A stretch of DNA of 64,000 bases from Cyclobacteriaceae bacterium (GTDB taxonomy: Bacteria; Bacteroidota; Bacteroidia; Cytophagales; Cyclobacteriaceae). Numbering within the stretch: the stretch's first letter is position 1; the number at the start of each line of letters is the position of its first letter. The notes below the pieces were generated by a model. It did not search any database. It saw only the letters and a program-made list of their open reading frames with translations, and was not told the origin of the DNA. Both the position numbers and the translations under genes were made by a program. Location of the stretch: the NCBI GenBank assembly GCA_026989535.1, contig JALSJD010000102.1:2868-66867 (forward strand), written 5' to 3'. This document shows positions 38,509-41,964 of this stretch, in pieces.

Positions 38509-38710
38509 TCAGGTTAAATATTTCTCAAATTGGTAAGCTTTGTATTTATCGGTAAATACAATATATGTTTCAACTTTAACTGGCAATCGAGACTTTGTAT
38601 AATGAACTTCACCACGATTATGACGTACAAGCCTTTTTTCAAGGTGGTGGGTACAGCCAGTGTAGTGTGCGAGCCGTCTGCACATGTAAGTATATAAACA
38701 GTCTAGGCAT
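38509..38710 (-). pseudogene. Frameshifted small GIY-YIG (URI-domain) nuclease relic
   Basis: The minus-strand translation is spread over three frames: MPRL.. / ..VYILTCADGS / HYTGCTHHLEKRLVRHNRGEVHYTKSRLPVKVETYIVFTDKYKAYQFEKYLT. No single intact ORF. Confidence 0.5.
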
Positions 38711-38941: not shown

Positions 38942-38953
38942 TTCAATACTTTG

Positions 38954-39357
38954 TGGAGTCGCAGGGATTCGAACCCTGGTCCAGATAAGGAAACCATATA
39001 CCCTCTACATGCTTAGTTTCACTTTAGGTTTTAGAGGAAGGCCGGCCGGAAACAAGCCAACTACAACCCTTAGCTACGTAGTTTCTCACCTTTAACAAGT
39101 AGCCAGTTAAAGGCCAGTTTTGCTTTTTCGACACCTCAATTCCAAATCAACAGAACAAAATTTGGGAAGATGTGGCCAGGTACCGTTCTTAACAGTAAAC
39201 CTTTTAAGCCTGCAATTTTAGCTCAAAGCTAAAATTAGGCAGCCATGGCGTAATTAGATTCGCCAAATATGGTTTGAGTATATTGATTACGGATGTTCAC
39301 TCCTCACCCGACATGCCAGTATATAATATTCGCCTACTGTCAATTCCAGTCGACCCC
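38954..39357 (-). ncRNA. ssrA: tmRNA (transfer-messenger RNA)
   Basis: 5' GGGGTCGACTGGAATTGACAG pairs with 3' ...GGTTCGAATCCCTGCGACTCCA, including the G-U pair at position 3. The tag reading frame GGCGAATCTAATTACGCCATGGCTGCCTAA encodes GESNYAMAA-stop (39235-39264). CCA is not encoded. Confidence 0.92.
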
Positions 39358-39384: not shown

Positions 39385-39669
39385 ATTAGATAAGAAATAT
39401 AAAATGCGAAATATGAATAAAATGTGAGATATGAGGCACCTATTCACCCATTAAAGGTTCATTTTTACCCACTAGGGTACGAAGTCTCCAAGTTTCACAA
39501 AAAGTTATGTGCTTTAAGTTATTATTTTGTGGTTCTTTGAGCCTTTTTGTCTTTGTGGCTATGCTTTTTTGGGTGAACAGTTACGATATGAGATATGAAA
39601 AAAATCTAATGTCTAAAAATCTAACGTCTAACGTCTAAAATCTTATCTCTTCTTCTTATCTTCGAGGCG

Positions 39670-40767
39670 ATGGAAAATTTTGTTGTTTCAGCACGTAAGT
39701 ACCGCCCACAGGGCTTTGAAGAAGTGATAGGTCAATCTCATATTACCACCACCCTACAAAATGCAATAGGTAATGATCATATAGCGCAAGCCATGCTTTT
39801 TTGTGGACCGCGAGGGGTAGGCAAAACTACCTGTGCGCGTATTGTGGCCAAAATGATAAACAATACAGAAGGAGAAGATGCCATTGACCTTTCGCTTAAT
39901 ATTTTTGAGCTTGATGCGGCTTCTAATAATTCGGTAGATGATATTCGTAACTTAATCGATCAAGTACGATACCCACCCCAAACCGGCAAGTATAAAATAT
40001 ATATTATAGATGAGGTACATATGCTTTCGCAACAGGCTTTTAATGCCTTTTTAAAAACGCTTGAAGAGCCTCCTTCTTATGCCATTTTTATTTTGGCCAC
40101 CACCGAAAAGCATAAAGTACTACCCACCATACTTTCGCGTTGCCAAATTTATGATTTTAACCGCATCCAAGTTTCAGACATAGCGACCCATTTGTTAAAA
40201 ATTGCCGAAGCTGAAAATATAAAAACAGAAGAAGAAGCTTTACACCTCATTGCCCAAAAGTCTGATGGAGCCTTGCGTGATGCCCTTTCGCTTTTTGATT
40301 TAATTGTTACTTTTTCGGCAGAAGGAGCCGTTTCCTATGCAGATACAGTAAGTAATCTTCACATTCTCGATTATGATACCTATTTTAAATTGGTAAGTTA
40401 TTTTTTAGAAAAGAATCAATCAGACGCATTATTACTTTTTGATGAAATTTTAAAAAATGGGTTTGATGGACATGAATTTATTATTGGCCTAGCCAATCAT
40501 TTTAGAAATTTAATGATGTGCAAGGACAATGCCACTACCCCTTTGCTAGATGTACCCAGCAGTGTGCAAGCTAAATATGCCGACCAAGCCAATCATTGCT
40601 CACTATCTTTTTTAATGAATGGGCTCAACCTTCTTTCTACATGCGATTTTGAATATAAGAGCAGAAAAAACCAACGCTTGCATATTGAAATCACTTTAAT
40701 GAAACTAACCCACTTAAATGCATTGATTAATGTTGCTCAGTTGGAGGCGAGCACCGAAAAAAAGTAG
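39670..40767 (+). CDS. dnaX: DNA polymerase III gamma/tau subunit, 0-frame (gamma-sized, 365 aa) product
   Basis: ARKYRPQ.F..V.GQ, GPRGVGKTT and IIDEVHMLS motifs. The frame ends ...GAA AAA AAG TAG. Confidence 0.92.
   Translation: MENFVVSARKYRPQGFEEVIGQSHITTTLQNAIGNDHIAQAMLFCGPRGVGKTTCARIVAKMINNTEGEDAIDLSLNIFELDAASNNSVDDIRNLIDQVRYPPQTGKYKIYIIDEVHMLSQQAFNAFLKTLEEPPSYAIFILATTEKHKVLPTILSRCQIYDFNRIQVSDIATHLLKIAEAENIKTEEEALHLIAQKSDGALRDALSLFDLIVTFSAEGAVSYADTVSNLHILDYDTYFKLVSYFLEKNQSDALLLFDEILKNGFDGHEFIIGLANHFRNLMMCKDNATTPLLDVPSSVQAKYADQANHCSLSFLMNGLNLLSTCDFEYKSRKNQRLHIEITLMKLTHLNALINVAQLEASTEKK
40743..40767 (+). promoter_or_regulatory. Candidate -1 recoding site: GGAGG, 10-nt spacer, A AAA AAG heptamer, 0-frame TAG
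   Basis: GGAGG at 40743-40747, an A7 run at 40757-40763 (heptamer 40758-40764), and TAG at 40765-40767. Confidence 0.5.
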
Positions 40768-41336
40768 CAAAGCCTATTGAAAAGGCGACCATTAGCCCCC
40801 CAGTAACGCAGGATAAACCTGAACCGCAAGCACTGCCTACGGTAAAAGTTTCGAGTACTCCTAAAAAAACAATTGGAATACCTACAATCGGCAGTGTTAA
40901 ATCTAAGCTGGCTTCGCAAAAAGAAGAAAAGAAAAGAGAACTTAGGCCTACCGAGACAAAAAAATCGAAGTCGAATAATTTTACAGATGAAGACTTAGCT
41001 AAATCGTGGACTCAATTTATTGATACTCGAAAGAAATTAGGAAACGACCAAGAAGTAGCATTTCTTAAACATAATTATGTGCGTGAGGATTCAGTAGTTA
41101 CTATACAAATTCATAATTCCATTTTAGAACTCACATTTGATAAAATTAAGGTTGAATTACAAGCGCATTTAAGGCTAACCTTACAAAACGATACTGTTAA
41201 AGTAGAGCTTGAAAAACTAGAGAGTTCGACAAAAAAAATGCTTTATACTAATAAAGAAAAGTTTGATCACTTAGCAGAAAAGTATCCTTCTTTAAAACTA
41301 TTGCAAGAAAAGTTGAGTTTAGACCCCGATTATTGA
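40764..41336 (+). CDS. dnaX: dnaX tau-specific C-terminal extension, read in the -1 frame
   Basis: The -1 frame is open from the heptamer to 41336: ..KKVAKPIEKATISPPVTQDKPEPQ...FTDEDLAKSWTQFIDTRKK...LQEKLSLDPDY. The ORF track shows only its last 85 codons (41079..41336). Confidence 0.65.
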   Translation, partial: VAKPIEKATISPPVTQDKPEPQALPTVKVSSTPKKTIGIPTIGSVKSKLASQKEEKKRELRPTETKKSKSNNFTDEDLAKSWTQFIDTRKKLGNDQEVAFLKHNYVREDSVVTIQIHNSILELTFDKIKVELQAHLRLTLQNDTVKVELEKLESSTKKMLYTNKEKFDHLAEKYPSLKLLQEKLSLDPDY

Positions 41337-41550: not shown

Positions 41551-41964
41551 CTAAAACTCTAAATGCTGAATTTCTTCGAGTGTTTTCTCGGTAAGAGGCT
41601 TGGTAACAAACTTAATTACATAATCATTATTCACGATTTTATCAATATCACGTTTATTATCCGAGCTGGATAAGATAATTACACGGCACTTGTCTTTAAC
41701 GATGCTTCCAAATTTTTCGTATTCGTACAGAAACACAAACCCATCTACAATAGGCATGTTAATATCTAAAAAGATAATGTCGGGCAGGCTATTTACATCT
41801 TCTTTATGCTCTGCCAAGTAGTCTAAAGCACCTTTGCCCGAGTTTTTAACAATCACATCGTCAGCGAATTTGGTTATCTCAATGATTCTTCTACTAATAA
41901 AATTATCGGTGTCGTTGTCATCGACCAACATTACTTTTTCAATTACATTAACCACTTCGCTCAT
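41551..41964 (-). CDS. Stand-alone response-regulator receiver domain (CheY-like)
   Basis: 137 aa with VDDND, FLDINMP and a conserved ...KP motif. Confidence 0.8.
   Translation of the reverse strand: MSEVVNVIEKVMLVDDNDTDNFISRRIIEITKFADDVIVKNSGKGALDYLAEHKEDVNSLPDIIFLDINMPIVDGFVFLYEYEKFGSIVKDKCRVIILSSSDNKRDIDKIVNNDYVIKFVTKPLTEKTLEEIQHLEF

Follow-up and report, generated by a model that had tools for sequence, protein, structure and literature searches.

A dnaX gene split between two reading frames at a conserved A AAA AAG site in a clade of Bacteroidota, and candidate routes of recoding to tau

The stretch of DNA analyzed here, called the window throughout, comprises 64,000 nucleotides (nt) of contig JALSJD010000102.1 from a Cyclobacteriaceae bacterium (assembly GCA_026989535.1) and has a GC content of 37%. 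It contains a gene for the DNA polymerase III subunit gamma/tau, dnaX, that is divided between two reading frames. A first open reading frame (ORF1) closes directly after a short run of adenines next to a Shine-Dalgarno (SD)-like element, and a second (ORF2) continues in the -1 frame. The junction is made up of the following features.

39670 to 40767, forward strand: dnaX ORF1 in the 0 frame, with an ATG start and 365 codons, ending ...LEASTEKK*
40743 to 40747, forward strand: SD-like GGAGG, a candidate 5' stimulator, separated from the heptamer by a spacer of exactly 10 nt
40758 to 40764, forward strand: slippery heptamer A AAA AAG, lying within an A7 run (40757-40763) plus G40764
40765 to 40767, forward strand: 0-frame stop codon TAG, which abuts the heptamer, ends the short product and may stimulate a shift
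40764 to 41336, forward strand: second part of dnaX (ORF2), read in the -1 frame, with 190 codons and a TGA stop (41334-41336)
40772 to 40786, forward strand: possible small 3' hairpin GCCU-AUUGAAA-AGGC, which begins 7 nt past the heptamer

The 0-frame end of ORF1 reads ...CAG TTG GAG GCG AGC ACC GAA AAA AAG TAG, which places the heptamer in the phase X_XXY_YYZ with 0-frame codons GAA AAA AAG. The -1 frame has been open since 40731 and reads VAKPIEK... from 40764. A fused product would have the junction ...STEKK-VAKPIEK... and 555 amino acids (aa) in total, whichever of the two recoding routes discussed below is taken. A preliminary description of this DNA had placed the ORF1 stop at 40767 after 365 codons, the heptamer at 40758-40764, a GGAGG at 40743-40747 exactly 10 nt upstream of it and a 190-codon -1 frame reaching to 41336, and all of these positions agree with the sequence. 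Taken singly, neither motif is remarkable in this window, which has 75 copies of AAAAAAG and 74 of GGAGG on the two strands and where an in-frame A_AAA_AAG is present in 5 of 45 long ORFs. The significance of the dnaX site therefore rests on its location and conservation, as the combination of both motifs exactly at an ORF junction, together with strict conservation, exceeds what chance would provide.

Both reading frames have recognizable protein content. ORF1 contains the Pfam families DNA_pol3_delta2, DNAX_ATPase_lid and DNA_pol3_gamma3 (residues 232-353) and corresponds to clamp-loader domains I-III, that is, the ATPase, lid and domain III modules. Against the 614 positions of the NCBIfam model NF011531 ("DNA polymerase III subunit gamma/tau") ORF1 aligns to positions 1-364 (E=1.4e-186), and the -1 ORF matches positions 439-612 of the same model (E=2e-19). 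Judged by these profile matches, both halves are dnaX, with ORF1 encoding a gamma-like protein and the -1 ORF the C-terminal part of tau. ORF2 is organized as a tau-specific linker (approximately residues 1-70) followed by a globular C-terminal domain (approximately residues 71-190), and an AlphaFold2 (AF2) model likewise exhibits a disordered linker of about 70 residues followed by a globular domain, with a predicted local distance difference test (pLDDT) score of about 90 at residues 71-150. The preliminary description had viewed the -1 frame as a linker plus a globular tau segment, and the NF011531 match and the confident domain of the AF2 model bear this out. A sequence search of the tau C-terminal part against PDB chains gave no match, and a Foldseek search of the ORF2 model against the PDB gave no significant match; weak Foldseek matches include E. 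coli tau C-terminal chains with domain V (5fku_E with E=0.043, 2aya and 5fkv_E), which is suggestive and is not used as evidence here. The homologous downstream ORFs of relatives are assigned to Pfam DUF8439 (PF28557). We note separately that this family (positions 40971-41333 of the window and loci L081-L090 among the relatives) corresponds to the C-terminal domain of Bacteroidota tau, and that gene callers list it as a stand-alone ORF of unknown function where dnaX is split.

A single additional A would fuse the two frames, and homopolymers are error-prone. The split might consequently reflect a sequencing or assembly error, a recent inactivating mutation, or A7/A8 phase variation at the DNA level. 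When the conceptually fused 555-aa sequence was used as a protein search query, clusters 73-100% identical to ORF1 were all 364-378 aa long with the C-terminus EKK or EKKK, and full-length DnaX of 560-650 aa was seen only among proteins at most 64% identical to ORF1. The DNA of relatives was gathered through exact-protein look-up and a metagenome scan with the pattern HFR[ND]LMMCKD, which lies about 85 codons upstream of the site and is blind to the form that the site takes. In this material 13 distinct sequences, obtained from different samples and with different assemblers, have the A7 run. All of them have GGAGG, GAAAAAAAG and TAA or TAG in common, and a second independent assembly (L114) repeats the dnaX site of the window base for base. 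No A8 allele was seen among the relatives examined or in L114. The A7 clade is present in marine and hydrothermal metagenomes, and one NCBI record of a metagenome-assembled genome (MAG) is labelled Cyclobacteriaceae. Differences within the last 110 codons of the -1 ORF are distributed over the first, second and third codon positions as 2047/1325/3937, a pattern that points to purifying selection on this frame. Tau is, moreover, essential in E. coli. Error, mutation or phase variation is in our estimation extremely improbable, and a pseudogene or assembly artefact was rejected as a candidate on the grounds that the disruption is conserved, that the downstream frame is not decaying and that none of the close relatives compared has the gene in frame. 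An alignment of dnaX from close relatives had been proposed in the preliminary description as a check on its three explanations; with A7, immediate stop and GGAGG conserved in 13 distinct sequences, it disposes of error or real mutation and leaves programmed -1 frameshifting, which we favor, and transcriptional slippage as a possible route.

A different alternative is that ORF2 is translated alone, through internal initiation or termination-reinitiation, and that the tau C-terminal domain is supplied in trans. The annotation of a separate downstream DUF8439 ORF by gene callers fits such an arrangement. However, the starts that are called differ among relatives, and the conserved sequence (KKTIGIP..., FTDEDL...) begins before them. 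Across the relatives there is no ATG, GTG or TTG for 23-117 codons of the -1 ORF, with the position of the first one varying, and the first canonical start in ORF2 of the window is codon 105; conserved ORF2 sequence in the relatives begins ahead of the first possible start codon. The -1 frame of most relatives opens merely 2-4 codons before the junction, which locates the shift at the A run, and orthologues at lower identity are full-length proteins from a single ORF. Independent initiation of ORF2 was rejected on the basis of the missing start codon and its variable position, and we give the two-protein arrangement as little credence as an error in the run. All rivals other than slippage, or slippage combined with frameshifting, together retain only a very small share of the probability. 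We are highly confident, from the comparison of these sequences, that programmed recoding of some kind would be what makes tau here.

The conservation of the site was examined in 11 ungapped A7 sequences over 393 aligned positions, with flanking DNA that is 63-100% identical (mean 73%). Invariant runs of at least 5 nt in this alignment are limited to ATGAA, GGAGG and GAAAAAAAGTA. Upstream of the stop codon only 10 of 80 third-codon positions are invariant, 5 of them located within GGAGG or the A7G run, and both third-codon positions inside GGAGG are invariant. The motif is kept while the amino acids specified by the codons that overlap it vary (L/S/V, E, A/E/G), and GAG accounts for only 27% of the Glu codons in the window. 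Ten sequences have a 10-nt spacer between GGAGG, which is invariant in the clade, and the heptamer, and two have one of 13 nt as a result of a one-codon insertion; the latter two have a second element, GGGGAG, approximately 9 nt before the heptamer. TAA or TAG abuts the heptamer in all 13 of the short-run sites.

Conservation at the RNA level is more limited downstream of the heptamer, where AGCCU-N7-AAGGC constitutes the sole conserved island of a variable linker. The possible 3' hairpin has 4 base pairs (bp), a folding energy of -4.7 kcal/mol and a z score of -0.69. It is kept in 11 of 13 relatives without covariation, being disrupted in L087 and L088, and its 3' arm uses the rarer AAG/GAG codon (AAA is 3.4-fold more common than AAG in the window). 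No strong 3' stimulatory structure was found on folding 40765-40850 (z -0.45) or 40700-40800 (z -0.50), and a stable stem-loop of the E. coli type located 5-8 nt 3' of the heptamer is lacking, with at most this 4-bp GCCU/AGGC hairpin in its place; the preliminary description had also seen no strong downstream stem-loop. An upstream nascent-RNA hairpin able to boost slippage was likewise not found, the consensus energy of -1.6 kcal/mol being negligible. Rfam at gathering thresholds detects only transfer-messenger RNA (tmRNA) and tRNA in the window, with no relevant family in 40650-40900 at E<=10.

Outside of the A7 clade the homologous position is occupied by longer runs. Loci L090-L092, L098, L103, L105, L106 and L112 have A10 at this position with the tau part in the -1 frame, as does a Roseivirgaceae MAG (L001), and the -1 (+2) relation of the tau part holds in all split relatives examined for frame. 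In a genome survey covering 79 loci among the matches listed, which are mostly from distant Bacteroidota and represent a sample and not a census, dnaX is split in 10 of the 79, all with A10 or A11 and none with A7; L001 is the single near relative among the matches listed in that survey. In a bootstrapped neighbor-joining tree of ORF1 proteins, built simply from distances, the A7 sequences form one clade (100 of 100 replicates), which joins an A10 clade (93 of 100), and the A10 locus L001 is further out. Since the A7 clade is nested with an A10 clade and an A10 outgroup, A10 is probably ancestral, and the A7 plus SD cassette was probably derived from an A10 version of the split gene.

Run length and the accompanying motifs go together. 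The 34 distinct split sites consist of 13 with short runs (A6/A7) and 21 with long runs (A10/A11). Among the short runs GGAGG is found in 12 and GAGG in 1 (L096), with an adjacent stop codon in 13 of 13, while among the long runs GGAGG at 5-16 nt is found in only 3 and the stop codon is located 0-12 nt past the run. The L096 site (PDWI01003828.1, ...GAGGAATTGCGAAAAAAGTAG) has an A6G heptamer, the codons CGA AAA AAG TAG and a GAGG 7 nt upstream. This locus is from a distant lineage, the nearest sampled relative of which carries A11, and the run may have been shortened here a second time, independently. Two further observations concern the runs themselves. At L063 (WTJH01000105.1, a Flavobacteriales MAG) the stop codon TAA comes immediately after A10 and the open frame is seemingly +1 and not -1, with 124 open codons before the contig end in the +1 frame versus 36 in the -1 frame, which could reflect a different polarity or an assembly error. 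Uninterrupted dnaX genes at L097/L110 and P0110 have an in-frame KKK at the site (...GIAKKKLTT... and ...EQVKKKTFKG..., respectively). Recoding of dnaX seems to have a recurrent hot spot at the Lys-rich boundary that separates domain III from the linker.

The A10 sites bring in the principal rival to ribosomal frameshifting, namely transcriptional slippage. In this reading RNA polymerase adds one A on the A7 run to give an A8 mRNA in which ORF1 and ORF2 are fused, and GGAGG is kept for another reason. A10 occupies the homologous site in the sister clade as well as in many further Bacteroidota and Chlorobi. Sites of this kind are usually put down to slippage, and Antonov et al. (2013, PMC3711429) attributed them to transcriptional realignment on the model of the A9 run of Thermus. 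A -1 relation corresponds to a 1-nt insertion, the commonest product of slippage. Slippage is usually evident from a run length of nine in many genomes (Baranov 2005, PMC1088944), so that A7 falls under the usual threshold, although length thresholds differ between organisms (PMC1088944). Slippage also leaves without a known role the GGAGG at the E. coli spacing, the adjacent stop codon and the downstream island, which are mostly lacking at A10 sites, and the stem-loop that could boost slippage on a short run is missing upstream. Slippage as the main route is therefore unlikely in our view, although it deserves serious consideration. A mixture of both processes, with low-level slippage on A7 in addition to SD-stimulated ribosomal frameshifting, would give the same protein from either route. 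At several A10 sites (L002, L007, L098, L063, L092 and L005) the last heptamer is preceded at 5-12 nt by GGAGG or GAGG, and these sites may do likewise; ribosomal frameshifting might contribute there also. However, the positions of SD-like motifs near A10 runs are variable and not conserved, and we hold this mixture to be less likely again than slippage. The preliminary description had proposed that the junction peptide ...STEKKVAKPIEK... be looked for as a discriminating product, but this peptide cannot tell frameshifting from slippage. As the protein is identical by both routes, only RNA-level data separate the two.

On balance we lean toward SD-stimulated -1 ribosomal frameshifting as the main route to tau. 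This preference is based on an SD-like element at the E. coli spacing, an always-adjacent stop codon and a 3' island, which are translational signals and which go with the short run and not with the long run; it is also based on an A7 run shorter than those on which slippage is commonly seen and on the absence of an upstream hairpin of the kind that boosts slippage. Under ribosomal frameshifting, unshifted ribosomes would read GAA AAA AAG and then TAG, generating a 365-aa gamma-like clamp-loader subunit composed of domains I-III. In a fraction of ribosomes the tRNA-Lys paired with AAA-AAG would pair anew with AAA-AAA, a backward step of one base on A AAA AAG, and decoding would then resume at GTA (40764) to add 190 residues (the disordered linker and the C-terminal domain), resulting in a 555-aa tau. 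The preliminary description had assigned the products in this same way, and the comparative data agree with it, as do a 0 frame that stops at 40765 and a -1 frame that carries the tau part. Three stimulators could act on this shift: pairing of the 16S rRNA anti-SD with GGAGG 10 nt upstream, a slow-to-decode stop codon after the heptamer and, perhaps, the weak 4-bp hairpin 7 nt downstream. In a cassette of the E. coli type a single tRNA-Lys (UUU anticodon) reads both AAA and AAG, making AAG shift-prone. In vitro, in systems based on E. coli, the heptamer A_AAA_AAG by itself leads to 14-16% frameshifting (bioRxiv 10.1101/2025.10.02.679949). We infer from the features of the site that the shift would be ribosomal and not transcriptional, as well as any efficiency that it may have and any use that may be made of the short product.

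Several points weigh against ribosomal frameshifting. A tRNA-Lys(CUU), if encoded, would lower the shiftiness of AAG; the window contains no 16S rRNA, rpsU or tRNA-Lys gene, tRNA-Met and tmRNA being its only RNA genes of the tRNA kind. The 3' hairpin is weak and without covariation. Additionally, the tree suggests that the association of A7 with an SD is essentially one evolutionary event, as it concerns a single clade, to which L096 adds a weaker case. Predicted gene starts show no excess of SD-like motifs in front of them (5 of 45 versus 6 of 45 in a control window, with rough start calls). The anti-SD is occluded on the ribosomes of Bacteroidia, and the SD of prfB does not stimulate the shift in wild-type Flavobacterium johnsoniae, where frameshifting reaches only ~7% (Naeem 2024, PMC10798248). 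Given an occluded anti-SD and no SD enrichment at starts, the SD stimulator may work poorly in this host. Finally, transcriptional realignment has been argued even for the short poly-A dnaX sites, A7-A9 (Antonov 2013, PMC3711429). With the same rough start calls, we also observe an A at position -3 in 22 of the 45 long ORFs of the window, as is expected for initiation of the Bacteroidia type.

Tau connects the clamp loader with the polymerase and the helicase. Consequently, chromosome replication in these bacteria hinges on a non-standard decoding event. The A7 plus SD clade and its A10 sister clade present two solutions at one codon of dnaX and provide a natural comparison for the question of how one of the two mechanisms, ribosomal frameshifting or transcriptional slippage, gives way to the other. 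A broader proposal, which we consider doubtful, is that A10-based slippage has been replaced by SD-stimulated -1 frameshifting in a family-level lineage of Bacteroidota, with the tau:gamma ratio dependent on what fraction of elongating ribosomes has a free anti-SD. If this were true, sequestration of the anti-SD under bS21/bS18/bS6 would couple replisome composition to the state of the ribosome. There is also a practical consequence for annotation, as gene callers split dnaX into a "gamma/tau" of approximately 365 aa and a DUF8439 ORF that annotation pipelines should merge.

The neighborhood of dnaX offers additional observations. A tmRNA gene is located at 38951-39357 on the reverse strand (Rfam 132 bits; ARAGORN tag peptide GESNYAMAA), approximately 300 nt upstream of dnaX and on the opposite strand. 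It adjoins a 58-aa ORF with a GIY-YIG domain at 38509-38685 on the reverse strand (Pfam E=2e-8), and the relative L084 has two 78-aa GIY-YIG ORFs upstream of dnaX, at 124-360 and 467-703 on the reverse strand. These ORFs may be small mobile or decaying nuclease genes. Tandem repeats are present at 39600-39638 just before the dnaX start, with a 15-nt unit (AAAAATCTAACGTCT, 2.1 copies) and a 7-nt unit (TCTAACG, 2.7 copies). Throughout the clade dnaX is followed by an opposite-strand gene for a single-domain response regulator of 137 aa (41551-41964, reverse strand, in the window) and then by an SLT/LysM protein.

For completeness, we compare this site with known systems, the closest being the two-ORF class of dnaX. 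The preliminary description had emphasized an inverted gamma/tau logic, which is indeed present here but is not new. The reversed two-ORF layout was described by Antonov et al. (2013, NAR 41:6514, PMC3711429) for 17 genes from 12 genera, and was also noted by Atkins et al. (2016, PMC5009743), who mention Chlorobium phaeobacteroides with stimulators like those of E. coli. Nine of the 17 genes have A10, including those of Flavobacterium johnsoniae, F. psychrophilum, Cytophaga hutchinsonii and Capnocytophaga ochracea, and the Chlorobi runs are A9, A8 and A7, with A7 in C. phaeobacteroides (PMC3711429). An experimental test of the two-ORF cases is not described in either paper (PMC3711429, PMC5009743). 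The dnaX of the window belongs to this class. Its ORF1 comprises domains I-III and ends just past the poly-A, where domain III borders on domain IV, the C-terminal part of tau follows directly in the -1 frame so that the long product needs recoding, and the architecture and the poly-A are conserved in related taxa (13 A7 and 21 A10/A11 distinct sites). In contrast, the published Bacteroidetes cases have A10 and were assigned to transcriptional realignment, while the clade of the window has A7 plus G, a GGAGG and an adjacent stop codon. What is added here is, on the sequences compared, a Cytophagales-like clade with a strictly conserved and complete A7, SD and stop cassette, an apparent switch from A10 to A7 plus SD, and an internal SD that appears to be under selection in a lineage seemingly without SD pairing at initiation.

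The dnaX cassette of E. coli provides a second comparison. Read directly from MG1655, it consists of AGGGAG, a 10-nt spacer, A AAA AAG and the known stem-loop 6 nt later, in agreement with the heptamer and SD spacing that the preliminary description had given for E. coli. The window has the same heptamer in the same phase and at the corresponding point of the protein, past domain III, with an SD-like element exactly 10 nt upstream in both cases. However, the shift in E. coli leads to the short gamma and tau is encoded in the 0 frame, whereas a shift in the window would lead to tau. E. coli also has a strong stem-loop of the 11-bp class versus a hairpin of at most 4 bp here, and the host of the window is in a group reported not to use SD pairing. 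The slippage at dnaX of Thermus thermophilus (Larsen et al. 2000), as it is related in later accounts (PMC1088944, PMC5009743), is similar in having a poly-A at a comparable position and two products. According to these accounts Thermus has A9 in one long ORF and slippage leads to the short form, unlike the window, where a split gene with A7 in place of a run of about nine or more would be recoded to the long form.

The final comparison is with the +1 site in prfB of Bacteroidia (Naeem 2024, PMC10798248), which likewise has a conserved internal SD-like element and an adjacent stop codon in a lineage that sequesters its anti-SD. It differs in that it is a +1 and not a -1 site, with short SD spacing and an autoregulatory circuit that senses release factor 2 (RF2), and in that it is located in another gene. 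The conserved GGAGG of dnaX would be the second case after prfB of a conserved internal SD beside a recoding site in a phylum with ribosomes reported to ignore the SD, and as such it bears on the reason why the anti-SD has been kept intact in Bacteroidia.

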